Source: an uncultured Candidatus Rokubacteria bacterium
GTDB taxonomy: Bacteria; Methylomirabilota; Methylomirabilia; Rokubacteriales; DASRDR01
Direction: 5' to 3'
NCBI GenBank assembly: GCA_963805625.1
Contig: CAWDVE010000012.1
Span: 64,001-128,000 of the forward strand
Length of the DNA: 64,000 bases
Below, piece after piece: positions 3,030-18,341 of this stretch (the stretch's first letter is position 1; each line of letters starts with the position of its first letter). The translations under genes were made by a program, and so were the position numbers. The notes under the pieces were generated by a model. It saw only the letters and a program-made list of their open reading frames with translations, did no database searches and was not told the DNA's origin.

Positions 3030-5480
3030 GTGCCCGCCCGCGCGCCTCCGGCTCCCCTCCCCGCTGGTCGCGTGGGCACCCTTCGCCGGAAACGTCCACC
3101 ACGACTGGCTCCGCTCCCCGACGGTCGGCCGGGCCCGCGTCCGAGGCTTCACGCGAACCGGGTGGGGCCGGCGCTTCGCCCGATCCTGACTCGCGACGCC
3201 GGGTCACCGCCTACCTCCGCCCCGCCTCCGACCCCTGGTGGCTCGGACCGCGAGGTCGCCGCCCCGGTTCTCGGTCTCCCGCGCCGTCGGCGCGGAGGGG
3301 CGCGGGCCGAGGCGACGGCGCTCCTCGCCCTCTACGGGTTGCTCCTCGTCGTCCCGTCGGCCAACTACCACCTCTTCGACGGCCTGCCTGCGAGCCGCGT
3401 GCCCGAATTCCTCGGGCTCGCCCTGCTCATCCCTTTGGTCGTCAGCCGGGCCCTCCGCCGCCTGTACGGCCGGCTCGTCGGCGGGTGGCCGGTGACGCGA
3501 CGTGCCCTCTTGGCGCTCGGCGCGGTCGCCCTCGCGGCGAAGGTCGTCCTGCTCGCCTCGGGGACTCATGCGGGCTTCCTGGCTTGCTACCGTTCGCCCA
3601 TCGCCGCGCCGCCCGCCGGACCCTGCGAGAAGTCATACGAGAACCCGTTCTCCCGCTTCGGCGTCACGCGGATCGACCGGCGTCTCGACTTCATCCCGGC
3701 CAACTGGGACCTGTCCTTCATCAACTCGCTGCGGTTCAACATCTATCACTGGGTCGCGGGCAACGTCGTCCGGGATCGTCTCCCCCTGGCCGCGACCTGG
3801 ACCGGGACGGTCGCGCGCTCGCGCGCCTGGACGGCCGAGGTACGCTACGTCGGCGCCGCCACCGTCCAGGTCGACTCGATGGAGCCGACGAGGCTCCGCC
3901 CCCGCTACGACACGCTGGCCGTCGCCCACGTGCCCATCCCCGCCGGCCGCCATCGCCTCGTCGTCACCTACGAGTTCGACGACGGCTCCCGAGTCGGCGA
4001 CGGGCACACGCGGGGCCCCTACGCCACCATTCGGCTGGCCCGGCTGAGCGAAGCGCCGGGCCCGGCGATGCCGGTGAGGCCGGTGCGACCGCCGCGGGCG
4101 TGGCGGTGGACCGGCGCGGCGGTCGACGCGGTCGTCGTCCTCCTCGCGGCGACGGTGGCCGGGGCGTGCGCCGTCGCTATGGCCCGCGAGGCGTGGATCC
4201 CGGCCGTCGTCGCGGTCGCGGCGGCCGGCAGCCACCTCTGGGACGGACGGCTGCCCGTCGTTCCGTCGCACTCGTGGTTCTTCCTCCTGCTCGCGCTCCT
4301 TTTCGCGCATCTCGCCCTGGGCGTCCGCCCGCAGCGGCTGCTGGGCGCCTACCTCGGCATCCTTGCGGCAGCCTTCTTCCTGGCGTGGCGGCGACTCGGC
4401 CGGTTGAACGTCGTCCAGTACCGGGCGGCCGGCGATGACTGGCTGACGTACGAGTCCTTCGCGCGGTCCATCCTCGAGACCTGGTCGCTCCGGGGCGCCG
4501 AGGACGTCTTCTACTACCAGCCACTCTTCCGCTACGTCCGCTTCGCCGAGCATTTCGTGCTGGGGGACGGCGATCCGTTCCTCCTGACGTGGGCGGTCGT
4601 GACGCTCACGTGGAGCCTATTCTGGCTCGGCGCGGTCGCGATCGGGCGGCGGCGCGCGTCGTTCCGGACCATCGTCCTCACCTTCGCCGGTCTGCTGCTG
4701 GTGCTGCTGGCGACCTCCCCGACGGTCCTCGACCTGGTGCACGCGGGAGTCTCCGAGTATCCAACCTGGATCGCGCTGCCCTTCTTACTGCCGATGCTCT
4801 TCGTGTCGTCCTCGACGAGGGCCTGGCTGCTGGGGGCGACCCTGCTGGGCCTCTCGCTCCTGACGAGAACGAACCAACTGCCGGCCGTCCTGGCGACGCT
4901 CGGGCTTTTCCTGTGGCGGGGCTGGCGGATCCGACCCCGCGCGGCCATCGCGGCCGGGCTCATGTTCGGCGCTGTCGCGCTGCTTCCCACGCTTCACAAC
5001 TACTACTACGGCGGTCGCCTGGTGCCGCTGACGACCAGCGCCGGGATCCCGGCGAATCTCGTGCTCCCGCCCGTGCGGTTGCTCGACGTCGCCCGCGACG
5101 CGGAGGTGCGGACGCGGCTCCGGACGCAGGTCGAGCGGATGCTGTACGTCGGTGGGTCCGACCGCGTCTTCGGGATGGCGGTCCGCGGGCTGCAGGTGCT
5201 GTGGGTGGTCACGGTCGGGGCGTGGGCGGTGACTGGCCGTGCGAGCTTGCCCCTCGCGCTACTGGTGGGCCTCCCCGTCTGCTACCTCGTTCCCCACGTC
5301 TTCTACCAAGCGACGCACGGCTATCCGCGGCACTTCCTCATTGGCTACCTCGCCATGGGGGCGGTCGTCCTCCTGGCCGAAGCGGGCTCGCGAGGCATTG
5401 CCCGGTCCGCGGCTCCGGCGATCGAATCGACGCCGCGAGAAGCGCCCATCATCCGGACGAGTCGGGGACCAATGGGCTGA
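3030..5480 (+). CDS. Large polytopic membrane protein, GT-C-like (start uncertain, probably downstream near 3250-3320)
   Basis: Many hydrophobic helices, a periplasmic loop, and a GDDWLTYESFARSIL motif resembling the GT-C acidic loop. Confidence 0.6.
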   Translation: MPARAPPAPLPAGRVGTLRRKRPPRLAPLPDGRPGPRPRLHANRVGPALRPILTRDAGSPPTSAPPPTPGGSDREVAAPVLGLPRRRRGGARAEATALLALYGLLLVVPSANYHLFDGLPASRVPEFLGLALLIPLVVSRALRRLYGRLVGGWPVTRRALLALGAVALAAKVVLLASGTHAGFLACYRSPIAAPPAGPCEKSYENPFSRFGVTRIDRRLDFIPANWDLSFINSLRFNIYHWVAGNVVRDRLPLAATWTGTVARSRAWTAEVRYVGAATVQVDSMEPTRLRPRYDTLAVAHVPIPAGRHRLVVTYEFDDGSRVGDGHTRGPYATIRLARLSEAPGPAMPVRPVRPPRAWRWTGAAVDAVVVLLAATVAGACAVAMAREAWIPAVVAVAAAGSHLWDGRLPVVPSHSWFFLLLALLFAHLALGVRPQRLLGAYLGILAAAFFLAWRRLGRLNVVQYRAAGDDWLTYESFARSILETWSLRGAEDVFYYQPLFRYVRFAEHFVLGDGDPFLLTWAVVTLTWSLFWLGAVAIGRRRASFRTIVLTFAGLLLVLLATSPTVLDLVHAGVSEYPTWIALPFLLPMLFVSSSTRAWLLGATLLGLSLLTRTNQLPAVLATLGLFLWRGWRIRPRAAIAAGLMFGAVALLPTLHNYYYGGRLVPLTTSAGIPANLVLPPVRLLDVARDAEVRTRLRTQVERMLYVGGSDRVFGMAVRGLQVLWVVTVGAWAVTGRASLPLALLVGLPVCYLVPHVFYQATHGYPRHFLIGYLAMGAVVLLAEAGSRGIARSAAPAIESTPREAPIIRTSRGPMG

Positions 5481-7452
5481 CCAGTCGTGCGAAGTAGGCG
5501 CTTTTCTCGACGACGTCCGCGTAGGACCCCGCCGCGGTGACCATGCCGTCTTCGAGGACGATGATCTGATCGCAACCGGCGATGGCGGAGGCCCGGTGCG
5601 TCACGGCGACGACGGTCCGCGGCTGATCGCGTCGGAGGGCCGCCCTGATCACCGTGGCCTCCCCATACGGATCCAGGGCGGAGGTCGCCTCGTCCAGGAC
5701 GAGGAGGCTGGGGTCGGAGTAGAGCGCCCGCGCCACGGCCAACCGCTGCCGCTGGCCGCCGCTCAGCGCCGACCCTCGCTCACCGAGCTGCGTGTGGAGC
5801 CCGCGCGGGAGCTGTTGGACCAGCTCCCAGAGCCCGACCTCCTCGAGCACGTGCTCGACACGGTCCTCGTCGATCGCGTCGGCGAAGAGCACGACGTTCC
5901 GGAGGATCGAGTCGTTGAAGATGTAGGGCTCCTGGGACACGACCCCGACGCCAGCCTGCCAGCCAGGTTCGAGTCCGCCCAGCGGCCGGCCGTCCAGTAG
6001 CACCTCGCCCGAAGTCGGCTCGAGCAATCCGACCAGGAGATCGACGAACGTGCTCTTCCCGGCACCGCTCGGCCCGACGATCCCCACGAAGCTGCCGGCC
6101 TCGATTCGGACCGTCACGTCACGCAGGGCCGGACGCTTCGACTCCTCGTACCAGGACGACACGCGCCAGAACTCGATGGCGACGTTCAGCACGGGAGGCC
6201 TCTTCGCCGGGCCGGTGCCGCCAGTGTATCGAGGACCGGCGGCGCCTCGAACGGGGACGTCCTGCAGCACCTGGTCGACGAACGGGAGACCGGCGCGAAC
6301 ATTCGCGAGATTGGTCGCGCTCCGGCCCGCCAGGGGCAACAGCCGGACGAGCGCGTACGCGAAGAGTCCGAGCATCGTCAGGACACGAGGCGTGTCGTAT
6401 TCCAGGCCGATCGTGAAGATGATGAGACTCGCGACTAGTATCATCGTGACACCCTCGATCACGATGCGCGGCAGGTCGACGAGGATCGCCCGATAACGGT
6501 TGGCGGCGGCCACCTTGGCGCGCTCCTCCCGGTGGCTGGACACCACGGGCGCCTCATGGTGGCGGAGGGTGATCTCGCGGCGTCCCTGCAGGACCTGATC
6601 CACGAACAGGTTCGCCGAGCGATCGTGCCGCTCGATGAGCGCGGTCGCTTCGTGGAGACGCGGGTTGACCGCCCTGACCAGCACGACGATCACGCCGGCC
6701 ACGAACGCCGCGGCGGCCAGCGTCCCCCACGGCGAGGCCACCACCATGACCGAGAGGATCGATGCGATGACGGCCGCGTCCGTAAGGAACTGGACGCCGG
6801 GCCGGAACACCTGCCACGCGACGAGCGTGGCGAGCTGCGAGACCCGCCGCTGGAGGTCCGCGACGCGGCGCTGCCTGAACCTGGCATACGGCATGCTCAC
6901 GTAGGCCCAGAGGAGGGCTTCGCCGATGACGATACCGGTCTCGACCGTCGCCGAGGAGGCGGCCGCCGTCAGCGCGAGAGTCAGGGCGGCCCGGAGCAGG
7001 AAGACGGCGACGACCACGGCCGTCACCAGAGCGGCCGTCGACGCCCCCACGAGGAGGAGCGGCGCTTCCGTCGCCCACGGCAGCAACGCCCGGGAGCCGG
7101 ACCCGGCCGACTGCGTCGCCAGCCGGATCACGTTGAGGAAGAGCGCGGTCGTGGCCAGCTCCGCCAGGGAGCAGAGACCGGTGAGGACCATCAGAAGAAC
7201 CCATCGGCGACGGACACGGCGGGGCAGCAGCCTGTAGATGGCCCGCGCCCGCGCCCACACCGACGCGGACGTGACCGGATCGCCCGCGTCCACCCGTGGC
7301 ATCACGATCGGCGGCGCGACGCTCGACCGCTCAGGGAGCGCGCCGGGACACGACCCCACGAATGGCTCGTCGTGGGCGGCCCCATACTTTCGGTGCCCGC
7401 CGTCGGACCTCGGCCTCGAGGCCGCCCGGACATCGATGGCGGCCCGATCCAC
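5449..7452 (-). CDS. ABC exporter, fused permease/ATPase (alternative start 7302)
   Basis: TM domain, Walker A GPSGAGKST, signature LSGGQRQR, Walker B LLVLDEATSALD. Confidence 0.93.
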   Translation of the reverse strand: MDRAAIDVRAASRPRSDGGHRKYGAAHDEPFVGSCPGALPERSSVAPPIVMPRVDAGDPVTSASVWARARAIYRLLPRRVRRRWVLLMVLTGLCSLAELATTALFLNVIRLATQSAGSGSRALLPWATEAPLLLVGASTAALVTAVVVAVFLLRAALTLALTAAASSATVETGIVIGEALLWAYVSMPYARFRQRRVADLQRRVSQLATLVAWQVFRPGVQFLTDAAVIASILSVMVVASPWGTLAAAAFVAGVIVVLVRAVNPRLHEATALIERHDRSANLFVDQVLQGRREITLRHHEAPVVSSHREERAKVAAANRYRAILVDLPRIVIEGVTMILVASLIIFTIGLEYDTPRVLTMLGLFAYALVRLLPLAGRSATNLANVRAGLPFVDQVLQDVPVRGAAGPRYTGGTGPAKRPPVLNVAIEFWRVSSWYEESKRPALRDVTVRIEAGSFVGIVGPSGAGKSTFVDLLVGLLEPTSGEVLLDGRPLGGLEPGWQAGVGVVSQEPYIFNDSILRNVVLFADAIDEDRVEHVLEEVGLWELVQQLPRGLHTQLGERGSALSGGQRQRLAVARALYSDPSLLVLDEATSALDPYGEATVIRAALRRDQPRTVVAVTHRASAIAGCDQIIVLEDGMVTAAGSYADVVEKSAYFARLVSPLVPDSSG

Positions 7453-7537: not shown

Positions 7538-8728
7538 TCAGTGATGATGGTGCTCGTACGCCCCCGCGGCGAGCCGGAAGAGGCGAAGGGGGTAGTGGAG
7601 GAATGACAGCGCGCGCGGCAGTCTCCGCGCTGCCCAGTCCTCGACCGTGAGGGTCGTCATCGCCAGCCAGCAGTACCGGACCCGATGGCGCCACCGCTCC
7701 CGGACGCGGAGCTGGAATCGGGCCTGCTCGAGGAGGCCGGAGGGGCGGCCGTCGTCCCGAAACAGCCGCGCCCGGACCGCGGCTGCCAGCGTAGGGACGA
7801 CGGCGTCCACCTCCGCCCGCCGCCGCACCGGCCCGGGCATCGGGGCGCCGAGCAGGTCCGCGGCCACTCGGAGCCCCAGCGCGAGCATCCGCTCGCTGGC
7901 AGCTTGCCGGGCCTCCGCCACCATTCGCGCCCAGTCGAGGCCGGGCCGGGCCCGCGTCAGCTCGGCGATGTCGCAGATCCAGATCAGGCGCTCCCACATG
8001 TGCTTGGCTCCGTGCTCGCAGAGGCTCGGCAGGAGGACCTCGGGCGCTAGCGTCGTGACGGTGGTGCCGGCAATCGTGACCGGCTCGAGCCGCTCCCAGA
8101 GTCGCTTGGGCTCGAGGAGCAGCGAGACGTGCCGCGGCGAGATCTCCCAGTGCAGCTCCACCATGGCCGATCGGTCGGGGCGCACCAGCGAGTAGGCGTG
8201 CTGGGACTCGACCAGCGCCTGCTCCTGGCTCTGGCTGAGCGCCACGTTCGGACGGAAGCCCTCGGCGACCAGGACGTCCTTCGCGCGTAGCACCTCCTGC
8301 TTGTTCACCAGGATGTCGAGATCGGAGAAGTCCCGGAGGCCGACGTGGCCGTAGGCCGTCATGGCCAGGGCCGGGCCGCGGTAGGGGATGGCCGGGATGC
8401 CCTCAGCGGTGAAGCGTTTCAGGATGGAGCAGAGCTGAAGGGCCAGGAAGAGGTTGCGGCGCTGGGTCTTCTCGAAGCTTTCCCTGAGGCGCTCGGGCAC
8501 CCCGGCGGGGAGCAGGCCGGGCTCCACCCCCTTGAGGTGCCAATGCACCAGTGGCAGCACCCCGTGCCATCGGGCCGTTCGGAGGATGTACTCCCAGTCG
8601 AGCTCCCGGTCGAGAAGCCCACGGAGGCGCTCGGCCGTCGGCGGGTCCATCCGCGTGCGCGCGCAGGCCAGCAGGAGCTCGCCCTCGGGACGGGAGCTGG
8701 TGGGTCCCGCCGGGGTGCCGGGTGACAC
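7538..8728 (-). CDS. Nucleotidyltransferase family protein (NTP_transf_5 type, commonly lasso-cluster associated)
   Basis: LDWEYILRTARWHGVLPL, YRGPALA..AYG..GLRDFSDLDILV, VELHW, HGAKHMWERLIWICDIA. Confidence 0.85.
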   Translation of the reverse strand: MSPGTPAGPTSSRPEGELLLACARTRMDPPTAERLRGLLDRELDWEYILRTARWHGVLPLVHWHLKGVEPGLLPAGVPERLRESFEKTQRRNLFLALQLCSILKRFTAEGIPAIPYRGPALAMTAYGHVGLRDFSDLDILVNKQEVLRAKDVLVAEGFRPNVALSQSQEQALVESQHAYSLVRPDRSAMVELHWEISPRHVSLLLEPKRLWERLEPVTIAGTTVTTLAPEVLLPSLCEHGAKHMWERLIWICDIAELTRARPGLDWARMVAEARQAASERMLALGLRVAADLLGAPMPGPVRRRAEVDAVVPTLAAAVRARLFRDDGRPSGLLEQARFQLRVRERWRHRVRYCWLAMTTLTVEDWAARRLPRALSFLHYPLRLFRLAAGAYEHHHH

Positions 8729-8995: not shown

Positions 8996-9017
8996 ATCTT
9001 CCAGCGTGAGGGAACTC

Positions 9018-9293
9018 ATGTCCAATGCGTTCGTCGCAGCAAGGGGGTTGGAAACGACCCCCCTTGAGGAAGGCGCCGTCCTGTTCCATCCAAAGCTCGG
9101 CAAGTTCGTCATGCTCAATCGATCGGCGGCCTTCCTTTGGAGCGAACTGGCGACGCCCAAGACGGAGGAGGAGCTGGCCCGTCGCTTCGCGGCCAACTTC
9201 ACCGATGCGGCGCCGGAGACGTCTCGGCAGGACGTGCGTGAGGCCCTGGCCAAGCTGCGGGAGTTGGAGCTCGTCTCCCCGGCTGAGGCCTAA
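9018..9293 (+). CDS. PqqD-family RiPP recognition element (RRE, lasso B1-like)
   Basis: 91 aa with RBS GAGGGA. LEEGAVLFHPKLGKFVMLNRSAAFLWSELATPKTEEELARRFAANF..RQDVREALAKLRELELV matches the PqqD winged-helix pattern. Confidence 0.9.
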   Translation: MSNAFVAARGLETTPLEEGAVLFHPKLGKFVMLNRSAAFLWSELATPKTEEELARRFAANFTDAAPETSRQDVREALAKLRELELVSPAEA

Positions 9294-9319
9294 CACAACC
9301 AACCCGGGGAGGCCAACAG

Positions 9320-9466
9320 ATGGATCAGCAGGCGACGGCGCGGTACGAGCGGCCCTCGATCACAGTGATGGACGAAGAGGAGCTGCTGAAGGTCTTCCAG
9401 ATGACGGCAGCGGAGATCAGCGTGGCGTCCTGCTGGTGGAACGCCTGCCCGACCGGTTGCCCGTAA
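9320..9466 (+). CDS. Putative RiPP precursor peptide, 48 aa: MDQQATARYERPSITVMDEEELLKVFQMTAAEISVASCWWNACPTGCP
   Basis: Translated by hand (below the ORF track cutoff). Strong RBS GGGGAGG at 9306-9312, YxxPx(I/L) RRE-binding leader motif, Cys/Trp-rich C-terminus, directly after the RRE gene. Confidence 0.88.
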   Translation: MDQQATARYERPSITVMDEEELLKVFQMTAAEISVASCWWNACPTGCP

Positions 9467-9492
9467 CGCCCACATCCTCGATCGTTCGAGCT

Positions 9493-9531
9493 CACGGCCT
9501 CGGTGCTCCGGCAACGGACGCCGAGGCCGTG
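9493..9531 (+). terminator. Stem-loop after the precursor gene (attenuator or mRNA stabiliser)
   Basis: cacggcctcggtg-c-tccg-GCAA-cgga-cgccgaggccgtg: long stem with one G-U pair and a GNRA tetraloop; weak U tract. Confidence 0.7.
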
Positions 9532-9601
9532 TGTTGATGAGCGCCTTCTTGCGAATCCTGGGCGTCGCGGCCTGCGACTGACGCGAAGCGGGGGACAAGG
9601 A

Positions 9602-10420
9602 ATGGGAGCAGCGGCTCAGTACGCCACGAAGGTCGTACGTGGAGTGACTCTCCGTGCGGACCCGGCCCGCGAGGCCTGCTTCAAGGTCGTGAACGACGCC
9701 ACCGATCTGGCGGACTATGCGGACATGTCGCCGGTGGCCCGGCGTCAGCGGCTCCACAAGCACATGCACAACGAGATGCAGAGTCTCGAGATGGCGGCGC
9801 AGTCCGTGGCCGACTTCCCCGACGCGCCGTGGGACGTCAGGATGGGGCTGGCCCGCCAGTGCTGGGACGAGACCCGGCACTCTCAAATCCTCCACCGGCG
9901 GCTCCGGGAGGTCGGGGGCTACAAGGGCGAGTTCCCGGTGATGAACTTCGAGTGGAGCATCACCTGCATGATGGACTCTCTCTCCGCGCGGCTGGCCATC
10001 CAGAACCGCACGTTCGAGGGGGGGGAGATCGACCTCCTGCGGCATCTTGTCGGCGTGTGGCGGGAAGAGGGCGACAACGACACCGCCGATCTCCTCGACG
10101 GGATCCTCGTCGACGAGATCCAGCACGTCCGCCTGGCCAACGAGTGGTTCAAGCAGATGTCCCGGCAGGATCCGACGGTGCTGCTGAAGCTGGCCGCGGC
10201 CGTCAACTTCCTGAAGCGCGTCACCCAGGCGTTCCAGCCGGCTCCCGGCGAGGTGAATGCCGCCGGCGTGAACCTCACCGGCTTCGAGCATGTCGAGATG
10301 CTCTCGAACGTCGAGGACCGGCTCCGCGCGGGATTCACGGAGCGGGAGATCGCCCAGATCCAGCTTCAGGAGAGCCAGCTGCGGGCCTCTGCGGCAGCAG
10401 AGAAGACCGCCGTATCCTAG
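9602..10420 (+). CDS. Ferritin-like diiron protein (DUF455-like), copy 1
   Basis: HNEMQSLE..ARQCWDETRH..NRTFEGGEID..LVDEIQH: two ExxH motifs in a four-helix-bundle spacing; RBS upstream of ATG 9602. Confidence 0.82.
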   Translation: MGAAAQYATKVVRGVTLRADPAREACFKVVNDATDLADYADMSPVARRQRLHKHMHNEMQSLEMAAQSVADFPDAPWDVRMGLARQCWDETRHSQILHRRLREVGGYKGEFPVMNFEWSITCMMDSLSARLAIQNRTFEGGEIDLLRHLVGVWREEGDNDTADLLDGILVDEIQHVRLANEWFKQMSRQDPTVLLKLAAAVNFLKRVTQAFQPAPGEVNAAGVNLTGFEHVEMLSNVEDRLRAGFTEREIAQIQLQESQLRASAAAEKTAVS

Positions 10421-10437: not shown

Positions 10438-11547
10438 GTGTCAACCGCCGTCGGACTCGGCCGGTGGAACGCGACGCTCGAGCGCGTCCTGGAGGCGCCG
10501 GAGCCGCGGCCCCGCCAGACTGAACCAGTCTGGTTCCGGTTCGGCGACGGGTTCTTGGAGGTCGTCTCCGACCACGAGCCGCTCCTCCGCGACCTCGAGG
10601 CCTTCTACGGGGACTGCGGGATCGCCGAGCCTCCCGCAGAGGGATGTCGGGTCCGCTGCACCGCGAGCCTGCTCCCCGGCGTCCCGTTGCTGTCCCTCTC
10701 GTTCAGCGGGCCACGCCAGCCCGATCTGATCGAGGTCGCGCGGAGCCCCTACCGGTTTCGCCGGCGCGAGCCGTACATCGAGGCTCCCGGCCCGGCGCCC
10801 GGCTGGCGCCTGCTGGTGAATCGCGATGCGGACGACCGCCTCCTCATCGCGACCAACGGCCGGGTGAGCTTGGTCAACCTCGACGAAGCGCCGGCCGAGT
10901 TCGTCGTCGACCTGGTCGTCTCCGCGGCCCAGAGTATCCAGACCGGGGTGCTGTTCCTCCACGCCGGCTCCGTGGGCGTCGGCGGAACGGGCGCCCTGAT
11001 CATCGCCCCGACCAACGGGGGCAAGTCGACGACCACCCTCGCCCTGGCGCGGCGCGGCCATGCCTTCCTCGGCGACGACGTGGCGGCGGTGCGGCTGGCC
11101 ACCCGCGAGCTGCTGCCGTTCCCGAGGTCGGCCGGGCTGCGGGAAGGATCCCTGGCCCGATCCCTGGAGGGGCAGGTGCAGGGGTGCCGCCACGTGCGCG
11201 CCACGAACCGTCACGGGATCGAGCGGGCCGTCGTGCGGGTCAGCGATCTCTTCCCCTGGTCGGTCAGCGGCCCGCTGCCCCTCCGGTTCGCGTTCGTCCT
11301 CGACGGGCTGGCGGAGAGCGCCGCGATCTCGGAGTTCCGGCCTGGGCTCGGCGAGCTGCCCCGGCTCCAGTCGACGGTGACCGACACGTCGACATCCTGG
11401 GGGCTCTCGCCCGGGCGTGACCTGATGCTGTTCCTCTCGGTGGTGAACCTTCTGTCCGGCCTGCGCTGCCATCTCGTGCAGCGCGGCTCCCCGGACGAGA
11501 CCGCACGCGTCATCGAAGCCGCCATCATGGAGGGAACATGTACCTGA
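10438..11547 (+). CDS. HPr-kinase-like P-loop kinase (lasso-cluster type)
   Basis: LFLHAGSV..GALIIAPTNGGKSTTTLALARRGHAFLGDD; GTG start inferred. Confidence 0.82.
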   Translation: MSTAVGLGRWNATLERVLEAPEPRPRQTEPVWFRFGDGFLEVVSDHEPLLRDLEAFYGDCGIAEPPAEGCRVRCTASLLPGVPLLSLSFSGPRQPDLIEVARSPYRFRRREPYIEAPGPAPGWRLLVNRDADDRLLIATNGRVSLVNLDEAPAEFVVDLVVSAAQSIQTGVLFLHAGSVGVGGTGALIIAPTNGGKSTTTLALARRGHAFLGDDVAAVRLATRELLPFPRSAGLREGSLARSLEGQVQGCRHVRATNRHGIERAVVRVSDLFPWSVSGPLPLRFAFVLDGLAESAAISEFRPGLGELPRLQSTVTDTSTSWGLSPGRDLMLFLSVVNLLSGLRCHLVQRGSPDETARVIEAAIMEGTCT

Positions 11548-12098
11548 ACGTGAAGGAGCGGGGCGACCACGTAGCCACCTTTCGCTGGATCGAGGTGCGC
11601 CTGATGGAGATGTTGGCCGCCTGGGTCCCCACCACGCCCGAGATGGAGGTGAAGCTCGTCTTCGGAGCCCACATCTGGGAGGCCGCGCAGCATGCGGACG
11701 CGCTGGGGAAGCGGACCCACGAGCTGCGGCTGCCCCTCCACGACAGCCTCGAGCCCGCCCGTGGGTACGTCGACTTGCTCACGGAAGTGGCCAGGACGAC
11801 CGACACCAGCAAGCGGATCGCCGCGTTCTACGATTGCCTGCTCCCGGGCCTCGAGCAGCGCTTCCGGCGTTACATCGAGCGGGTCGACACGCTCCTGGAC
11901 GGCCCCACCGTCCGGATCCTCGAGCGGATCATGGGCGACATGGCCCGCATGACGGCCGACTGTCGCGCCCTCCTAGAGGAGGTGCCGGCCGTCAAGCTCA
12001 AGGACCACAAGTGGCTCGATGCGCTGCGCCAGCGCGAGGCAGGTCTCGGTGACATCATCGTCCACCGGGTGTCGAGCCCGGCGGCGGTCCCGGCGTGA
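11538..12098 (+). CDS. Divergent ferritin-like protein (copy 2) lacking the second ExxH
   Basis: WIEVRLMEMLAAW..EVKLVFGAHIWEAAQHADALGKR resembles ferritin-like helices 1-2; overlaps both neighbouring genes. Confidence 0.65.
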   Translation: MYLNVKERGDHVATFRWIEVRLMEMLAAWVPTTPEMEVKLVFGAHIWEAAQHADALGKRTHELRLPLHDSLEPARGYVDLLTEVARTTDTSKRIAAFYDCLLPGLEQRFRRYIERVDTLLDGPTVRILERIMGDMARMTADCRALLEEVPAVKLKDHKWLDALRQREAGLGDIIVHRVSSPAAVPA

Positions 12099-12808
12099 GC
12101 GTCATGGCCAGCATCGGCACGATCGTGGTGCGCGGTGGCGTCACTCTGCGAGCGAGCCCGGCTCGAGACTCCTGCTTCAGGATCGTCACCGACCAGGCCG
12201 ACATGGTGAAGCATCCCGACGGGTCGCTCGAAGCGCGTCGGGAGCAGCTGCACAGCGATGTGAACAACGAGCTCCAGAGCCTGGAGATCGCCGCCCAGTC
12301 GATCGTCGACTTTCCCGAAGCGCCCTGGGAGCTGCGCCTCGAACTGGCCCGCCAGTGCTGGGACGAGGTACGCCACGCCCGCCTGTTCCTCGGCCGGCTT
12401 CTCGCGCTCAAGGGATACCTGGGGGAGTTCCCCATCATCAACCAGGAGTGGGGCGTCGTCTGCATGTTCGACTCCCTCCCGGCGAGACTTGCGGTCCAGA
12501 ACCGGATCTTCGAGGGCCTGTCACTCGACGTCTTCAAGGAGAGCGTCGAGGTGTGGGCGGGCTGGGGCGATCCCGAGACGGCCGAGGTCATGGAAGGCGT
12601 CATGGTCGACGAGATCCGGCACGCGGCATTTGCCCAGGAGTGGCTTCGCCGCCTGGGAGCCGGTAACCCGGGCGTGACGCTCAAGGCCGTGGCGGCCATG
12701 AGCCAGCTGAAGACGATGAGCATCGCCTTGACCCCCGCCGGGCAGAAGATGGAGCACGAGATCCCGGTCAACACCGAGGACCGGCGTCACGCCGGGCTTC
12801 CCATCTGA
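12095..12808 (+). CDS. Ferritin-like diiron protein (DUF455-like), copy 3
   Basis: NNELQSLE..ARQCWDEVRH..NRIFEGLSLD..MVDEIRH; clear paralog of 9602-10420. Confidence 0.82.
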   Translation: MSVMASIGTIVVRGGVTLRASPARDSCFRIVTDQADMVKHPDGSLEARREQLHSDVNNELQSLEIAAQSIVDFPEAPWELRLELARQCWDEVRHARLFLGRLLALKGYLGEFPIINQEWGVVCMFDSLPARLAVQNRIFEGLSLDVFKESVEVWAGWGDPETAEVMEGVMVDEIRHAAFAQEWLRRLGAGNPGVTLKAVAAMSQLKTMSIALTPAGQKMEHEIPVNTEDRRHAGLPI

Positions 12809-12816
12809 GTTCGCCC

Positions 12817-13560
12817 ATGAGTACGCCTCAGGACGCCGCTCGCCCTCCGCTCGACCCGGCGCTGTTCGCCGATGGCCCGGCGCGCGATTCGCGGTTCGCG
12901 GTGAAGGACCGCTGGATTGAGATGGCCAACACCCCGGCCGACCATCCCCTTCATCAGATGGAATTCACGCATCGCCAGATGAACGAGGAGATCAACGGCC
13001 TCGAGTGCTCGGCGCGCGGCCTGAGCGACTTCCCGGACGCGGCCTGGGAGCTCCGGATGGCGCTGGCCAGGCAGTGCGTCGACGAGGCGCGCCACGTCAA
13101 GATGTTCCGGCGCCTCCTCGAGCGCCTCGGAGGGCACGTCGGGCAGTTCCCGGTGCTCAACTTCCAGTACCGCATCATCACGAAAGCGGACAGCCTGATC
13201 GGCCGGCTGACGATCCAGAATCGTACGTTCGAGGCTGGCGGGCTCGACGCCGTCTCCGCGGTGGTCGAGCAGATGCGGGCGAGGGGCGACGACGACCTCG
13301 AGCTGTTCTTCGACTCCCAGCTGGCCGACGAGATCCTCCACGTGCGCTTCGCCAACGAGTGGATTCGCCGGCTGATCCACGAAGACCCGCGAAACGTTCT
13401 CCGGATGGGGAGCGCGATGACGGCCGCGGCGAAGGCGTTCAAGCAGGTGATGGGAAGGGAAGGGACGGAAGGAGTCAGCTATCCCACCGACAGACAGGCT
13501 CGTTTGGAGGCGGGGTTCACCCCCAGTGAGGTCGAGATGGACGCGGGGTCCAAGGCCTAG
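12817..13560 (+). CDS. Ferritin-like diiron protein (DUF455-like), copy 4
   Basis: MNEEINGLE..ARQCVDEARH..NRTFEAGGLD..LADEILH. Confidence 0.82.
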   Translation: MSTPQDAARPPLDPALFADGPARDSRFAVKDRWIEMANTPADHPLHQMEFTHRQMNEEINGLECSARGLSDFPDAAWELRMALARQCVDEARHVKMFRRLLERLGGHVGQFPVLNFQYRIITKADSLIGRLTIQNRTFEAGGLDAVSAVVEQMRARGDDDLELFFDSQLADEILHVRFANEWIRRLIHEDPRNVLRMGSAMTAAAKAFKQVMGREGTEGVSYPTDRQARLEAGFTPSEVEMDAGSKA

Positions 13561-13594: not shown

Positions 13595-14200
13595 ATGACG
13601 AGGTCGCTCAGCGAGGCGGACACGGCGACGTCCCGTCCTGATCCGGTCCAGGCGGTCGCGGCTTTCTTCCGGGAGGATCCGGCGCGCATCCTCGCTGTCG
13701 CTTCGAGCCTCCGAGGCCCCGACCGCAGCATCGAGTCCACCGTCGAGGGTAAGAGCATGGGGCGGACGCTCCCGCCCGGCTCTCGGATCCGCATCGAGCT
13801 GGCCGATCGACCCGGTTACGAGGTCGGGGAGGTGGTCGCGTTCCTGGCCCGGGGCAAGGTCGTCGTGCACCGGGTGGTGCACAAGAGCCAGCGGGGTGCG
13901 GCTCGCGGCCGGCTCCTCACGCGGGGCGACGCCGCGCTGGTCCCCGACCCGGCGATCGACGTGGCGAGCGTCCTGGGCGCGGTGACCGCGATCGACCGTG
14001 ACGGAGGCTGGGTGCCGCCGGATGGACGGCCCCGCCGATCGCTCCCCGCTCGAGTCGTGGCCTCGCTCGCGCTGGCCATCGTCGCGCGCGTGCTGGAGGC
14101 GAGCCCTCGGGCCGCGGACGTCGTCGTGCGGCTGCTCCACCGAGGACGGCCGCTCCATGCGGCGTGCCTGCGTCACGGCGGGCGAGGGGTGGCACCATGA
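13595..14200 (+). CDS. S24/S26-family (signal-peptidase-like) serine peptidase
   Basis: VEGKSMGRTLPPGS (catalytic Ser), GEVVAF..VVVHRVV (His), LLTRGDA..PD. Confidence 0.78.
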   Translation: MTRSLSEADTATSRPDPVQAVAAFFREDPARILAVASSLRGPDRSIESTVEGKSMGRTLPPGSRIRIELADRPGYEVGEVVAFLARGKVVVHRVVHKSQRGAARGRLLTRGDAALVPDPAIDVASVLGAVTAIDRDGGWVPPDGRPRRSLPARVVASLALAIVARVLEASPRAADVVVRLLHRGRPLHAACLRHGGRGVAP

Positions 14201-14961
14201 AGCTGGTCGCCCAGACCTCGCAGTTCCACGTCTATGACGACGTCCTGCTGGAGAAGGATTTCCGCGCGGTTTGGAACTACGTCCAGCTCGAATCGTACGT
14301 GCCGGTACACCACGACGGCTGGGTGAAGGTCTGGCGCATCTCCGACGGCGTCCCGCTGGGCGCGTTGGCGACCGTGCTCTACGAGAGCCCCAAGCGTCCG
14401 GCCGGATCGGAGGACGCCAAGGGCACCCGCATCTATCCCACGCACACGGGGCTCGACCGGGTGCTGGAAGCCCTCAGGACCCATGCCGACCAGCTGGCCG
14501 ACCTCGTCGGCAAGTGGGGCGCCGATTTCGACAACGTGAGCGCTCGTGCGTTCCTCTATCCGCAGGGGACGGGGCTGTCCTGGCACGAGGACGCGGTCAA
14601 CTACACCGGCGGGTACGCCTTCTACGCGCATCCGGAATGGAACGTCCAGTGGGGCGGCGAGCTCCTCGTCGCCGACGAGTCCGCCAGGTCCCAGCATTTC
14701 GAGGACGACCGGCTCCCGGTTCTTACGCGCACGGAGGAGGGGCTCCGGCTCACCAAGGTGCGCATCCCGCCGTTCCTCGACAATGCGCGCCAGAATACCG
14801 TGCTCGCGCAGCGCGGCATGGGATGCTACATCACTCCGAAGCCCAACCGACTGGTCGTGATCGCTGCCGGGAACGCCCACATGATCAACCGGGTCCACCC
14901 GGCCGCCGGAGACCACGTCCGCTGCACGATCGCGGGCTTCTTCATCTCCTCCAAGGTTTGA
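14197..14961 (+). CDS. 2OG-Fe(II) oxygenase (prolyl-4-hydroxylase-like)
   Basis: LSWHED (HxD), YAHPEWNVQWGGEL, PKPNRLV..HMINRV..RCTIAGF. Confidence 0.85.
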   Translation: MKLVAQTSQFHVYDDVLLEKDFRAVWNYVQLESYVPVHHDGWVKVWRISDGVPLGALATVLYESPKRPAGSEDAKGTRIYPTHTGLDRVLEALRTHADQLADLVGKWGADFDNVSARAFLYPQGTGLSWHEDAVNYTGGYAFYAHPEWNVQWGGELLVADESARSQHFEDDRLPVLTRTEEGLRLTKVRIPPFLDNARQNTVLAQRGMGCYITPKPNRLVVIAAGNAHMINRVHPAAGDHVRCTIAGFFISSKV

Positions 14962-15017: not shown

Positions 15018-16721
15018 ATGCGGGGTGGCTTCGTCGTCTGCCTGAACGGAAACGGGCGCCTTCTCGACCAGGTCGTCGAGCACGTGCGCTGGCACCACGG
15101 CAAGGGCATCCGGGATCACCGCGATGGCCTGGAGATCGCCGCCCTCGTCGACGGCGCCGACGGCCCGGCCATCGAGATCGGAGCCGGCCGGACCGTCCTG
15201 GTCCATGGCGCCGCCCCGGCGCCCCTCGCCGAGCTCCAGCGCCGCGGGACGCGGTTCGCGGCGATCGAGTGGGACGGAGTGCGATTGCGCGCCAGCCGGG
15301 ATCCGATGGGCCTCGCCCCGCTGTTCTACCGGGCGTATCAGGGAGTCGTGTGGCTTGCCACGGAAGTGCAGCCCCTGGTCGCCCTGGGACGCGCGGCTCC
15401 GGACCTGGAAGCGCTCACGGCCAGGACCGCGTTCACCCCGATCGACGATCGGACGGGCTGGGAGGGCATCGGGCGCGTGCTCCCCGGGTCGACGCTCGAG
15501 TTCGGCCCCGATCGGCAAGTCTCCTCCGCCCGCTACTGGCAACCGGCCGAGGCCCTCGGTCGGTACCGGGGCAGTCGCGCCGAGGCGCTGGCGGAGTTCC
15601 GGGAGCGGTTCCGCACGGCGGTGGGGCGGTGCTACGAGCCCGGTGGCGGCATCCTGCTCAGCGGGGGTCTCGACTCGGCGGCGGTGGCCCTGACGGCGGC
15701 CGAGCAGGGGCAAACCCGCCCGCATCTGGTGCATGTCCACTTCCCCGACCTTCCCGAGACGCACGAGCAAGGATACGCCAGTGCGGTGGCGGCCGCCGTT
15801 GGCGCTCCGCTCCACGTCGTCCCCGGGCAGGTCGACCCCTGGGACGTGGACCCCGAGCTCGACGGCTGGGGAGGGATCGCTTACAGCTGGGTGCCCTACG
15901 GCATGGAGGACCCCGCCCTGGCCCACATGGCGGCCTCGGGTGTCACGGTGGCGCTGGACGGCCACGATGGAGATGGCGCCCTCGGTCCCCTCGGCTCCAA
16001 CTGGGGCGACATGATCCTGAAGGGGGAGCTTCGCCAAGTCGCCGCGCTGGCCGTGCGCCATGGCGCGTGGGCGCTCGTCCGCGGGGTCGCCGTCGATTTC
16101 CTTCCGCCGTACGCCTGGTTACGCCGGCTGGCCGGCCGCCCTCCCCGAGCAACCTACATGCAGTCGGTCGCTCACTACTTTCGCGGGCCCCTCCGCGACC
16201 GCAGCCTCGCGGCCGACATCGAGCGGTGGACGTGGCCGTCGAGGCGCTGGGGGGTGCGGCAGCTCCAGCCGCTGCTTCCGCGTGCGACGATCTCCTTCGA
16301 GCAGAAGGAGCTCGAGGCGGCTCGCCACGGCCTCGACATGCGCCATCCCTTTGCCGACCGTGAGCTGGTCGAGTTCCTCATCTCGCTCCCGTCGGCCGTG
16401 AAGAGCGATCCGATGCGTCCCAAGGCGATCCTCGTGGACAGCCTGAGCGACCTGCTTCCCAAGGCCGTCCAGCAGCGCCCAAAAAGCGACTACATGGCCG
16501 CCGTCCGACAGCGGGTGGACCCGGCCGCCTGCATCGAGAGGATCCGGGCCTCGGGCGTTCGCCTGCCGGGCATCGAGTACGGACGACTCCTGGACGACGC
16601 CCGGCTCGATCCCAACGGGCTGCCGCTGTTCTTCCTCGTCAATCTCACCCGGATCCACGCGTTCGCCCAGCGGGCCCTCGAAGCGGCCGGCGGCTCCGGG
16701 AAGGGGGCGCCCCATGTCTGA
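15018..16721 (+). CDS. Asparagine-synthetase-like ATP-dependent enzyme of lasso-cyclase type (no N-terminal catalytic Cys)
   Basis: RDPMGLAPLFY, ILLSGGLDSAAV (PP-loop), LDGHDGD, MRHPFADRELVEFLISLP; N-terminus is MRGGF rather than MCGI. Confidence 0.85.
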   Translation: MRGGFVVCLNGNGRLLDQVVEHVRWHHGKGIRDHRDGLEIAALVDGADGPAIEIGAGRTVLVHGAAPAPLAELQRRGTRFAAIEWDGVRLRASRDPMGLAPLFYRAYQGVVWLATEVQPLVALGRAAPDLEALTARTAFTPIDDRTGWEGIGRVLPGSTLEFGPDRQVSSARYWQPAEALGRYRGSRAEALAEFRERFRTAVGRCYEPGGGILLSGGLDSAAVALTAAEQGQTRPHLVHVHFPDLPETHEQGYASAVAAAVGAPLHVVPGQVDPWDVDPELDGWGGIAYSWVPYGMEDPALAHMAASGVTVALDGHDGDGALGPLGSNWGDMILKGELRQVAALAVRHGAWALVRGVAVDFLPPYAWLRRLAGRPPRATYMQSVAHYFRGPLRDRSLAADIERWTWPSRRWGVRQLQPLLPRATISFEQKELEAARHGLDMRHPFADRELVEFLISLPSAVKSDPMRPKAILVDSLSDLLPKAVQQRPKSDYMAAVRQRVDPAACIERIRASGVRLPGIEYGRLLDDARLDPNGLPLFFLVNLTRIHAFAQRALEAAGGSGKGAPHV

Positions 16722-17475
16722 CGCCGCGGCGGGGACGGGTTCGGCCGCGTCCGCGCTCGCGCGGGACGGCTTCGCCGGTCCGTTCCCGCTCGGGACCCCG
16801 GCCCAGATGAGCGTCGTGGCCCTCCAGCTGTTCAAGTCGGTGTTCACCCGGCCGGGACCCTTCGCCGACGACCCCTTCCTCGATCGCCACCTCGATTCGC
16901 CGCTGGTCGCCCACCTGGCCACGCATCCCGCGATCCTCGCCCGGGTCGAGCCGCTCCTGGGCGGCGACCTCGTCGCCTGGCGATCGATCTTCTTCGCCAA
17001 GGGCCCGACGAGCCGGGAAGTGCCGTGGCATCAGGACGGCCACTTCTGGAACCTCGATCCGCCGATCACGCTCACCGCGTGGCTCGCGATCGACCGCGCC
17101 CACGGCGCCGATCACTGCATGGAGGTCGTGCCCGGCTCCCACCGGACGGCGCTTCCGCACGTCCCGTCGGCTCCGGGATCCCAGTTCCCGGAGAGCACCG
17201 CCCCCGGGTCCTTCGACCTCTCCCGAGCGATCGAGCTGCCGGTGGATGCCGGGATGTTCGTCCTGTTCGACCAGCGCCTCGTGCACCGTTCGAAGGGAGG
17301 CGGCCAGGCGCGGCGCCTCGCCCTTTCGGTGAGGATCGCCCCCGCGCACGTCCGGATCCCCCCCCACTTGCTGCCTCCGGGTGGCCGCGTGCTGCCTTTT
17401 GGGTGGAGGTCCCTCGCCGAGTCACCCCTCGAGGCCTCCCGGTCCGCCTCGTCCGACCCGCGCCGCGCCTCGTGA
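16714..17475 (+). CDS. Phytanoyl-CoA dioxygenase (PhyH) family Fe/2OG enzyme
   Basis: FFAKGP..VPWHQD..W, TAWLAID..CMEVVPGSH, LVHRS..RRLALSVR. Confidence 0.87.
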   Translation: MSDAAAGTGSAASALARDGFAGPFPLGTPAQMSVVALQLFKSVFTRPGPFADDPFLDRHLDSPLVAHLATHPAILARVEPLLGGDLVAWRSIFFAKGPTSREVPWHQDGHFWNLDPPITLTAWLAIDRAHGADHCMEVVPGSHRTALPHVPSAPGSQFPESTAPGSFDLSRAIELPVDAGMFVLFDQRLVHRSKGGGQARRLALSVRIAPAHVRIPPHLLPPGGRVLPFGWRSLAESPLEASRSASSDPRRAS

Positions 17476-18341
17476 CGCGCCCCGGCGACGCCAGCCCGGC
17501 CGACGCCGCCATGCGGGAGGCGCGCGAGCAGTCCTGGTTCCACACGATCAATCTTCCCGACGGCAGCAGCACGCGCGGTGTCTTCGACAACCGGGGCGTG
17601 GCCCGGCTGGTGCAGTGGCCGGCCGGCCTGCCCGGCGGCCGGTGTCTCGACGTCGGGACGTGTGACGGCTTCTGGGCCTTCGAGATGGAGCGCCGCGGCG
17701 CCGCCGAGGTCACCGCGATCGACGTGGACGACCCCGCCCACCTCGACTGGTCGTGGGAGTCCCGCCGCAACCCAGACGCCACGCAGGCATGGCGGGCGCG
17801 TCGGGGCCACCGCTTCGACATCGCCCGCCGCGCTCTGGGGTCGCGGGTGAACCGGGTGGCCTGCTCCGTCTACGATCTCGACCCGTCCGTCCACGGCCGG
17901 TTCGACGTGGTCTTCTGCGGGACCCTGCTGGTGCATCTCCGGGACCCGGTCCGGGCGCTCGAGCGCATGCGCGAGGTCTGCGCGGGCGAGCTCGTTCTCG
18001 TCGAGTGCATCGACGCGGTCCTGGACGTGGTCGCCTGGCGGGTGCCTTGCGCCCGATTCACCCCGGCGGCCGAGCAGTGGTGGCGGCTCAATCGGGCCGG
18101 GCTCCTCCGCATGCTGCGGGTCGCCGGCTTCGACGTGCTGTGGGCGAGCCGCCGGTTTCACACGCCGTTCGGGCCGAGCGTGCTGCTTCACCCGTCCCGG
18201 CGGTTCGGGCCGCTCCGCGCCGGCCGGGCGGCGGTGGCCCAGGTGCTGCGGGCGTTCCCGAGCGCCCCGGTCCTGGCCGATGCCGCCGGGCTGGCGCTGG
18301 GCACGTACGACGTCGCCGTCCGCGCCCGGCCCCGACCGTGA
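17472..18341 (+). CDS. Class I SAM-dependent methyltransferase
   Basis: WFHTINLPDG..T.G, CLDVGTCDGFWAFEMERRGA, FDVVFCGTLLVHLRDP; overlaps the previous stop (GTGA). Confidence 0.85.
   Translation: MTRPGDASPADAAMREAREQSWFHTINLPDGSSTRGVFDNRGVARLVQWPAGLPGGRCLDVGTCDGFWAFEMERRGAAEVTAIDVDDPAHLDWSWESRRNPDATQAWRARRGHRFDIARRALGSRVNRVACSVYDLDPSVHGRFDVVFCGTLLVHLRDPVRALERMREVCAGELVLVECIDAVLDVVAWRVPCARFTPAAEQWWRLNRAGLLRMLRVAGFDVLWASRRFHTPFGPSVLLHPSRRFGPLRAGRAAVAQVLRAFPSAPVLADAAGLALGTYDVAVRARPRP

Follow-up and report, generated by a model that had tools for sequence, protein, structure and literature searches.

What is encoded by the short, unannotated open reading frame (ORF) at positions 9320 to 9466 of the stretch of DNA analysed here, and what do the genes for ferritin-like proteins of family DUF455 that follow it have to do with its product? 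The stretch, called the window below, comprises 64,000 nt of contig CAWDVE010000012.1 from assembly GCA_963805625.1 (positions 64,001-128,000, forward strand) and has a G+C content of 69.3%. The comparisons reported here suggest that the ORF encodes the precursor of a conserved, undescribed family of ribosomally made peptides with post-translational modifications (RiPPs), in which three DUF455 proteins of the diiron type are predicted to carry out an oxidative modification of an invariant Cys-Trp-Trp motif. The probability of this reading is estimated at roughly 0.55, and every chemical step in it is inferred.

The ORF and the signal in front of it are defined by the following features:
9320..9466, plus strand: precursor peptide ORF of 48 amino acids (aa), ATG at 9320, TAA at 9464-9466
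9306..9312, plus strand: Shine-Dalgarno-like GGGGAGG, 7 nt upstream of the precursor ATG, read in the sequence

The translation is MDQQATARYERPSITVMDEEELLKVFQMTAAEISVASCWWNACPTGCP, and a spacer of 26 nt separates its ATG from the TAA (9291-9293) of the preceding gene for a PqqD-type RiPP recognition element (RRE). An ORF scan of the window lists this frame, and position, translation, ribosome-binding site and gap are all as described in an earlier reading of this DNA made from the letters only (the sequence-only reading). The G+C content per codon position (0.55/0.49/0.88) follows a pattern like that of the neighbouring real genes. Among 5.8 billion clustered proteins, a search detected 44 close homologues (E <= 2.5e-11, 60-96% identity, 46-84 aa), and a profile search of 1.84 billion representatives returned 64 with E <= 1e-3, 33 of them at E <= 1e-10; 57 new sequences from the profile search were fetched, the long proteins P0075 and P0086, each with several short matched stretches, being left out. 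In their sources the homologues are always named 'hypothetical protein' or left blank, and no model in Pfam or NCBIfam matched the precursor peptide. In the ESM Atlas, the best matches of the precursor (0.88) were to unnamed clusters and those to lantibiotic-precursor clusters reached 0.77-0.80, which was judged too weak for use. Related loci, cited below by L numbers, were collected from species-representative genomes (8 loci from 194 pattern matches) and from metagenome contigs (46 loci from 337 pattern matches), giving 54 in all; L010, L023 and L068, which share an identical peptide and gene order, were counted once, and L049-L051 have one common peptide.

As the ORF is short, lacks a library model and lies in a window rich in spurious ORFs, it might be an untranslated frame that is open by chance in intergenic DNA rich in G+C. 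The probability of this is negligible, since the peptide is conserved across phyla with variation at synonymous sites. In a conserved 21-codon block, 55 sequences correspond to 50 distinct DNA versions, among which 3404, 2580, and 10504 differences fall on codon positions 1, 2, and 3, respectively, and for each residue of the invariant Thr-Ala-Ala all four synonymous codons are in use. A chance frame would also be hard to reconcile with a fixed place between the RRE gene and DUF455a, with in-frame fusions to the RRE in other loci and with a strong Shine-Dalgarno sequence. As far as sequence evidence reaches, the chance-frame explanation is already refuted and the 48-aa ORF is a genuine gene under purifying selection. 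Parts of the stretch are contained in 20 public runs from 12 studies, and contigs from RNA libraries of three studies extend over the precursor (X12, 9012-9463; X16, 9083-9505; X18, 9204-9427), differing within the ORF at three places, two of them synonymous and one causing the replacement M28L. Differences in contig depth between precursor and DUF455a were left out of account, as genes cannot be ranked by contig depth and uncovered parts carry no information, and so were habitat labels based on small word shares.

A gene map was drawn from Pfam and NCBIfam matches with refined starts, 16 proteins of the cluster being scanned, and synteny was followed by tblastn of the window proteins against the 54 loci. 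Besides the precursor, the cluster contains the following genes, in which Lpp names refer to the LPP system compared below and numbers without a unit are E-values:
5449..7452, minus strand: ATP-binding cassette (ABC) exporter with transmembrane and ATPase domains, likely the export pump; ABC_tran 2.9e-31, ABC_membrane 3e-4
7538..8728, minus strand: NTP_transf_5 nucleotidyltransferase, LppN-like accessory; PF14907 3.4e-60
9018..9293, plus strand: PqqD-type RRE of 91 aa, ATG at 9018; PF05402 3.5e-15
9602..10420, plus strand: DUF455a; PF04305 3.3e-28, 99.3 bits vs a gathering score of 34.3
10438..11547, plus strand: HprK-related kinase, LppK-like, with P-loop GGKST and a GTG start; PF07475 2.3e-5, TIGR04352 1.4e-9 (below cut-off)
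11538..12098, plus strand: 186-aa ferritin-like partner ('unk186') without a Pfam or NCBIfam family
12095..12808, plus strand: DUF455b; PF04305 2.1e-24, 86.9 bits vs 34.3
12817..13560, plus strand: DUF455c; PF04305 1.3e-24, 87.6 bits vs 34.3
13595..14200, plus strand: serine peptidase resembling signal peptidase I of the archaeal/SEC11 type, LppS-like; TIGR02228 2.9e-9
14197..14961, plus strand: 2-oxoglutarate (2OG)-Fe(II) oxygenase, accessory; PF13640 7e-5 and PF13661 5.2e-5, both below gathering score
15018..16721, plus strand: asparagine-synthetase-like (AS-like) adenylating enzyme; PF00733 2e-29
16714..17475, plus strand: PhyH-type Fe/2OG dioxygenase, accessory; PF05721 2e-22
17511..18341, plus strand: S-adenosylmethionine-dependent methyltransferase, accessory; PF13489 5.1e-9, PF08241 4.6e-8

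The sequence-only reading had tied its proposal to conservation of the ORF in syntenic loci, and in the 54 related loci the ORF is clearly conserved. The order RRE, precursor, DUF455a, HprK-like kinase, 186-aa partner, DUF455b, DUF455c, signal peptidase, and AS-like enzyme recurs in records from Acidobacteriota, Burkholderiales, Steroidobacteraceae, and Chloroflexota. A DUF455 gene is found within 400 nt 3' of the precursor in all 50 loci that have at least 300 nt downstream (the other 4 loci end too early), and of the 40 loci that extend 400 nt or more upstream, 33 have a PqqD gene directly in front of the precursor; three of the seven remaining loci (L014, L017, L057) carry PqqD elsewhere in the locus. 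All 12 loci that continue for 6.7 kb or more downstream contain the series DUF455a, kinase, 186-aa protein, DUF455b, DUF455c, and peptidase, only L055 being without the b copy. From this adjacency in 50 of 50 loci and from the interleaving with kinase and peptidase genes in 12 of 12, it follows that the four ferritin-like genes belong to the core of the cluster and are not mere neighbours. Ten of the 12 long loci also have an AS-like gene on the same strand (L046 has a weak match on the other strand and L055 none). Outside the window, the 2OG oxygenase recurs in L020 and L023 and the PhyH protein and the methyltransferase in L013 and L023, and because they recur only in these three loci the three genes are regarded as accessory. 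ABC genes flank the cluster in L010-L014, L023, L040, L046, and L055. NTP_transf_5 has a 67% identical copy in L010/L023 and weaker matches in L012, L014, L016, L026, L027, L030, L046, and L055; it is not universal and is often absent.

The precursor itself is laid out as a variable N-terminus (residues 1-8), an RRE-binding motif (Y9-E-R-P12-S-I14), an acidic helix (E19-K24), the segment F26-Q-M-T29, and a predicted core, A30-P48, that holds S34 and C38-W39-W40. Among the close homologues, E19, E21, L22, L23, F26, Q27, T29, A30, A31, E32, I33, S34, V35, A36, C38, W39, and W40 are invariant and Y9, E10, P12, C43, and C47 nearly so, and the family consensus reads YExPS[IV]xV[LM]DEEELLKVFQMTAAEIS. 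A pattern requiring WW was matched by 115 of 123 stored proteins, which gave 88 distinct core variants, and these fall into a CWW branch of 69 variants, with 9 residues between Thr and WW, and a sister branch of 19, in which this distance is 5 or 6 and which is exemplified by FQVTVAGISWWVG, with no Cys before WW. Of the 69 CWW-branch variants, 67 have C38, and WW is present in every variant counted, as the pattern demands. Residue 32 in the CWW branch is mostly E (54 variants) and otherwise Q (8), K (6), or R (1); Ser or Thr stands at core position 5 (five after Thr) in 78 of the 88 variants, and F-Q-x-T is invariant in the family. The tails after WW vary from 1 to 46 residues and many of them contain no further Cys, as in CWWATTAHQVKE or CWWMAGSGAG. 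Read from these alignments, the family signature is Y-x-x-P-x-[IV], an acidic helix, F-Q-x-T-x-A, Ser/Thr, and WW, and Cys43 and Cys47 are characteristic only of the subgroup of the window. The proposal in the sequence-only reading that the three Cys and the WW pair are modification sites, with cross-links, hydroxylation or disulfides as the putative chemistry, is thus supported in part: it may hold for the near-universal C38-W39-W40, and Cys43 and Cys47 are conserved only in the closest subgroup. The gene has the general properties of a RiPP precursor, being a short ORF with an RRE and modifying enzymes adjoining it, a conserved leader, and a variable core tail.

Two clusters of the sister branch, L067:4744-8700 (precursor ending in ...FQVTQSMAVWWITAMC) and L082:54-3583 (ending in ...FQITQAMATWWGAC), also have no Cys before WW. 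They contain PqqD, precursor, kinase, partner, and two DUF455 genes, with no DUF455 gene directly after the precursor; a peptidase gene is present in L067, and L082 stops at a contig edge. The genome G254 carries both cluster types. Few as they are, these two loci hint that DUF455a goes with the extra Cys-containing segment, and contrary to such a link the precursor of L056, which has VWW, is still adjoined by a DUF455 gene. A head-to-tail lactam of 7-9 residues in the sister branch was considered and set aside as speculation, because the AS gene of L067 is of the full glutamine-dependent type and is located upstream.

The DUF455 proteins are the candidates for acting on the Cys-Trp-Trp motif. 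In an alignment of 28 DUF455 sequences, covering the three paralogues in ten loci including the window, E63, E90-x-x-H93, E139, and E172-x-x-H175 are kept in 28/28 sequences, and so are C87, W77, R80, and R85. As the full E/ExxH/E/ExxH ligand set is present in all three paralogues, each of them should bind a dimetal site. Searches of the PDB with the sequences of DUF455a and of the 186-aa partner gave nothing significant. The partner shows a mean column identity of 68% over 17 homologues, and its AlphaFold2 (AF2) model is a helical bundle with a pLDDT of 92.3, for which all Foldseek matches are ferritin-like (3ez0, CADD, YciF, and the toluene 4-monooxygenase beta subunit) with TM-scores of 0.55-0.70. 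In hhalign, LME..PE..W[DE]xAQHA of the partner is paired with SLE..PD..WDExRHA of DUF455, the second Glu and the last ExxH being lost, and on the basis of model and alignment the 186-aa protein is probably a degenerate, non-catalytic partner. In the ESM Atlas the 186-aa protein matched only unnamed clusters, with DUF455 clusters at 0.81, which was taken as a lead only. It is somewhat probable that the DUF455 proteins, together with this degenerate partner, would use O2 to hydroxylate or cross-link C38, W39, and W40, with CWW as the target.

A multi-iron enzyme that works with a non-catalytic partner has precedents. In MNIO (DUF692) pathways such as those of MbnB/MbnC and TglH/TglI and in biphenomycin-like pathways, a non-haem multi-iron enzyme that activates O2 and a non-catalytic partner oxidise Cys or aromatic residues of a ribosomal peptide. 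The likeness is a working one only; MNIO enzymes have the unrelated TIM-barrel fold, and a four-helix ferritin-like bundle is predicted here. In the hydroxylase of toluene 4-monooxygenase, a catalytic diiron four-helix-bundle subunit likewise stands beside a ferritin-like subunit without a metal site, and chain B of this hydroxylase (T4moH) is among the Foldseek matches of the partner, at the level of fold only (TM 0.64, E about 3e-2). Unlike the gene sets of multicomponent monooxygenases, the cluster is without genes for a reductase or an effector, and a peptide would be the substrate.

On another contig of the same genome, at L075:8664-10028, there is a fourth DUF455 gene, directly followed by a gene whose product shares 34% identity with the 186-aa partner. 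Neither an RRE nor a WW peptide was detected in its surroundings, and the other large ORFs there, read by eye, are housekeeping-like. Because the pair recurs at this place, DUF455 and partner seem to form a general two-gene module that was multiplied in the cluster.

The RRE of the window matched the lasso-peptide PqqD chaperone model NF033530 (1.5e-11) and TIGR04353 (8.4e-8), both below cut-off, and the best solved relatives of its profile were TbiB1 (5v1u, 1.5e-8) and TfuB1 (6jx3, 6.6e-7), lasso B1 proteins that were crystallised with YxxPxL leaders; the next matches were two PqqD-family entries of 2026. In the precursors Y-x-x-P-x-[IV] is near-invariant. In 15 loci (L011:9650-10120, L012:9659-10120, L013:9674-10123, L024, L027, L028, L032, L035, L037-L039, and L042-L045) RRE and precursor form one open frame of 135-172 aa with a variable linker of ~30 residues, in which a clean ATG stands at the start of PqqD and PqqD has no stop. 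Those of the fusion records that are named are labelled Burkholderiales or beta-proteobacterium, and the protein library contains independently called fusions of 146-155 aa (P0046, P0052, P0053). As judged from their reading frames, the fusions are natural 'self-recruiting' RRE-precursor proteins. An AF2 model of the L012 fusion (154 aa, alignment of 16 sequences) has a pLDDT of 79-88 in the RRE and below 50 in the linker and shows a disordered core; the leader (pLDDT 73-78) forms a beta-strand, VSVL, right after YAPPS and then a helix. Strands are assigned by DSSP only where they have a partner, and all further strands belong to the RRE, so that in the model the leader is docked on the sheet of the RRE; the RRE part of the model superposes on the TbiB1-leader and TfuB1-leader complexes with TM-scores of 0.81-0.86. 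The idea of the sequence-only reading that the precursor has a lasso-type leader served by the adjoining PqqD-type RRE is thus borne out by the near-invariant motif, the B1 relatives, and the 15 in-frame fusions, and it is very probable that the RRE would bind Y9-x-x-P12-x-I14 as an added beta-strand.

Of the known systems, the linear polyphosphorylated peptides (LPP: LppA/B/K/S/N/D) from Paenibacillus and other Bacillota come closest; in them an RRE, a peptidase resembling signal peptidase I (SpI), an HprK-like kinase, an NTP-transferase, and an exporter are encoded together (Popov et al., Nat Commun 2026, PMC13381572). According to that article, LPP precursors have 35-200 aa and variable cores, core Ser3 receives up to four phosphates from the kinase, and the SpI-like LppS, with Ser, His, and Asp residues, cuts the leader after Thr-1 (FET) and only when the RRE is present; cleavage depends on F-3, E-2, T-1, and L-10 and is poor when the precursor is not phosphorylated, and LPP is described as restricted to Bacillota. 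Compared with what is given there, all five protein types are present in the window cluster, with a discrete RRE of the lasso type, and the leader has YxxPx[VI], an end with Phe and Thr, then Ala and a nearby Ser. The signal-peptidase-like protein scored 37 bits against TIGR02228 (curated cut-off 51.85) and gave a weak alignment with SEC11A in the region of the His and Asp boxes, and both the window peptidase and 13/13 homologues retain the boxes G-x-SM, VHR, and GD..VPD, so that, although below the cut-off, it shares with LppS the Ser/His/Asp boxes and a linked RRE. Kinase, NTP transferase, and an exporter resembling MsbA are found in the window as in LPP, the last two being variable across loci, and Ser/Thr at core position 5 is compatible with phosphorylation of a core Ser as in LPP.

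With this set of proteins and with the arrangement of YxxPx[IV] and F..T/A..S in the leader (slashes mark cuts), the cluster could be simply another LPP, defined by phosphorylation of a core Ser, with the ferritin-like, AS-like, and 2OG genes as optional tailoring genes or neighbours. This is unlikely. The LPP motif YxxPxVLxHQxIxFETxxS is matched neither in spacing nor in residues, as there are five more residues here, no HQ, and FQxT in place of FET. The DUF455 gene after the precursor and the four interleaved ferritin-like genes are universal in the loci long enough to hold them, whereas of the LPP set the NTP transferase is frequently lacking, and L061 has no kinase at the expected position. 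The LPP core set, as far as described there, has no enzyme of the macrolactam-synthase type, and here an AS-like gene stands after the peptidase gene in most of the long loci. LPP cores are variable but the CWW here is invariant; the hosts belong to Acidobacteriota, Burkholderiales, Steroidobacteraceae, and Chloroflexota instead of Bacillota, and the RRE-precursor fusions are a further difference from the LPP loci as presented. A word search of the text of PMC13381572 found none of the terms ferritin, DUF455, oxygenase, and asparagine synthetase. As read from the genes, the system combines an LPP-type module for recruitment and processing with a universal DUF455 set and an invariant (C)WW.

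By analogy with LPP, the RRE would probably present the leader to the signal-peptidase-like serine protease, which would act as leader peptidase. The leader is probably cut after T29 (F26-Q-M-T29/A30, that is FQMT/AAEIS), in line with FET/A in LPP; the sequence-only reading had tried the boundary of lasso peptides, with Thr29 at position -2, for which T29/A30 is the more likely substitute. That the cut would fall exactly there and release AAEISVASCWWNACPTGCP is given even odds. A cut at VAS/CWW, with small residues at -1 and -3, was ranked second because L037, L039, and L047 have Leu or Met at -1. Phosphorylation of Ser34, core position 5, by the HprK-like kinase would be in keeping with the LPP kinase and is considered a little less probable than its absence.

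The AS-like enzyme bears both on the last steps and on the question whether the product is a lasso peptide. It has the ATP-binding loop SGGLDS, and as its N-terminus reads MRGGF[VI][AV]C in 9/9 homologues it lacks the N-terminal Cys nucleophile of the glutamine-dependent type. Among solved structures it is closest to a hydroxyamidotransferase (6.6e-11) and to beta-lactam synthetase (1.2e-7), and against the lasso cyclase models it scored 92.3 bits for NF033535 (cut-off 525) and 71.7 bits for NF033561 (cut-off 300). An enzyme of this family without the glutaminase Cys, as in lasso cyclases, a lasso-type leader motif with a B1-like RRE of the B1/PqqD type, Thr two residues before an invariant Ala, and a kinase and a nucleotidyltransferase as in paeninodin-type clusters (PMC13381572) would all suit an atypical lasso peptide, in which the AS-like enzyme is the cyclase and Thr29 the penultimate leader residue. 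Yet Asp or Glu occurs at core positions 7-9 in none of the 88 variants, whether the core is counted from A30 or A31, E at position 3 being the only acidic residue that recurs; no B2 peptidase (PF13471) was found among the 16 cluster proteins, the single match in the genome being on contig C16, and a peptidase of a different type is conserved instead. In paeninodin-type lasso clusters, which share the B1-like RRE, YxxPx[LIV], the AS-family enzyme without glutaminase Cys, the kinase, and the NTP transferase, a B2 peptidase and an acceptor at 7-9 would be expected, but here both are lacking, the AS score is far below cut-off, and leader removal is predicted to be due to a serine peptidase. The atypical lasso peptide is therefore very improbable, and the view of the sequence-only reading that a canonical lasso macrolactam cannot form is upheld by the variants and by the missing B2 peptidase; on this evidence the peptide is not a lasso peptide. 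The single PF13471 match of the genome, on contig C16 (L069; L076:5918-9154), has weak AS-like and HprK-like matches nearby, and this region probably represents a lasso-type cluster of the conventional kind, separate from the one described here.

Cha et al. 2026 (PMC13060819) report AS-like enzymes of RiPP clusters which can amidate the C-terminal carboxylate or turn it into a nitrile, and count ~300 uncharacterised members linked to RiPPs. PesC (C-terminal nitrile), TsrC, and ScdTA (C-terminal amidation) share with the window cluster an AS-family adenylating enzyme encoded with a RiPP whose core offers its C-terminal carboxylate; PesC uses glutamine, whereas the window enzyme lacks the N-terminal Cys. 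E32 as the acyl donor was ranked low because it is Q, K, or R in 15 of the 69 long-branch variants. With E32 replaceable and no other acidic residue available, the C-terminus is the most likely substrate, and this is the weakest part of the model: only tentatively is it proposed that the AS-like enzyme would adenylate a carboxylate, most likely the C-terminal one, for amidation or for formation of a nitrile or lactam.

Together with several O2-activating enzymes, a chaperone of the PqqD family and an invariant Cys beside two Trp could also belong to the pathway of a peptide-derived redox cofactor or metal binder, for example a cysteine-tryptophylquinone-like compound, comparable to pyrroloquinoline quinone or mycofactocin and less so to secreted products of the antibiotic type. 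A further gene adjoins the cluster:
18469..20523, minus strand: di-haem cytochrome c peroxidase of the MauG family, abutting the cluster on the opposite strand

MauG-type enzymes oxidise tryptophan and act in the formation of tryptophan tryptophylquinone. The window's MauG-like gene lies opposite to the cluster, and since elsewhere only two short weak matches were found, in L044 and L045, it is probably outside the cluster. The tails after CWW are free in length and sequence and an ABC exporter is linked, both of which speak against a cofactor, and so does the distribution. The precursor was matched in only 3 of the 251 genomes of a phylum sample, including the genome of the window, which has one copy only, and a search of 60 related genomes gave no match better than E 0.07. 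The cluster is rare and patchy, a pattern of secondary metabolites and not of cofactors, and a cofactor precursor is quite improbable. Of the named records, that is the 8 species-representative loci, 2 are from Acidobacteriota, 4 from Burkholderiales or a beta-proteobacterium, 1 from Steroidobacteraceae, and 1 from Chloroflexota, and the cluster is present in at least four bacterial phyla.

In the RiPP pathway that is preferred here, the two Fe/2OG oxygenases and the methyltransferase would add optional decorations to the peptide and the ABC pump would export the product. For the PhyH protein the best NCBIfam match is 'chlorinating enzyme', with 81 bits vs a cut-off of 226, and its sequence reads WHQDGH. 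The H-x-D iron motif, as in WHQDGH, marks hydroxylases rather than halogenases.

A bolder proposal, which is put forward as a possibility with the odds against it, is that the cluster founds a RiPP class and contains the first DUF455 substrate: the three diiron paralogues and their partner would build a Cys-Trp or Trp-Trp cross-link or a Trp-derived quinone on a peptide that is recruited by the lasso-type RRE, in many species through fusion to it, and released by the protease, with DUF455a bringing in the Cys. No description of such a system was found in literature searches, which did not cover supplements or articles beyond the library searched, nor by word searches of PMC12710340, PMC7470986, and PMC13381572, and the SpI neighbourhood lists of PMC13381572 could hold related clusters. 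DUF455 (PF04305) is a widespread ferritin-like family of unknown function, which the three copies and the invariant CWW target make testable. If the proposal is true, a new enzyme fold would join the few O2-dependent RiPP maturases, and leader removal by a signal-peptidase-like enzyme, described in 2026 for LPPs of Bacillota, would extend to Gram-negative and other phyla. The natural RRE-precursor fusions are a rare architecture useful for studies of leader recognition, and the products would be small, exported, Trp/Cys-rich peptides of soil Acidobacteriota and Burkholderiales, candidate bioactive scaffolds.

Several observations weigh against a RiPP precursor whose Cys-Trp-Trp is oxidised by DUF455 proteins. 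To our knowledge, no DUF455 protein has ever been shown to act on a peptide, and we know of no characterised member; as the pair at L075 lies among housekeeping-like genes, the basic substrate of the family may be a non-peptide. For the partner, Foldseek gave no match at E <= 1e-3 (best E 1.2e-2), and its hhalign comparison with DUF455 is weak (E 0.074, probability 0.8%). The docking of the leader in the AF2 model may pass because it resembles the solved B1-leader complexes. The cut site is placed by analogy only, because the leader is five residues longer than in LPP and has FQxT instead of FET, and as residue 37 is Ser, Gly, or Ala in most members, a signal-peptidase cut at VAS/C would also fit. 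Ser34 is replaced by Gly, Ala, or Cys in a few members, and in L061-type loci the kinase is missing at the usual position. No substrate is assigned to the AS-like enzyme, and E32, the only acidic residue of the core, is replaceable by Gln, Lys, or Arg. Finally, the contigs X12, X16, and X18 amount to presence in RNA libraries, by which transcription is not proven.

The region directly downstream of the precursor contains a further element:
9493..9530, plus strand: G+C-rich perfect hairpin just 3' of the precursor stop, best 60-nt window -42 kcal/mol

A scan of positions 8600-9700 for consensus promoters and terminators found none, and no T-rich terminator. For 34 distinct loci, the strongest hairpin within the 110 nt that follow the stop was compared with two control windows: its median is -31.5 kcal/mol vs -23.6 and -22.6 kcal/mol in the controls, and it beats both of them in 27 of the 34, its sequence differing between loci; as the loci are related, Wilcoxon values for this comparison overstate the effect. 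The hairpin at 9493-9530 may act as an attenuator or RNA stabiliser that sets the ratio of precursor to enzymes.

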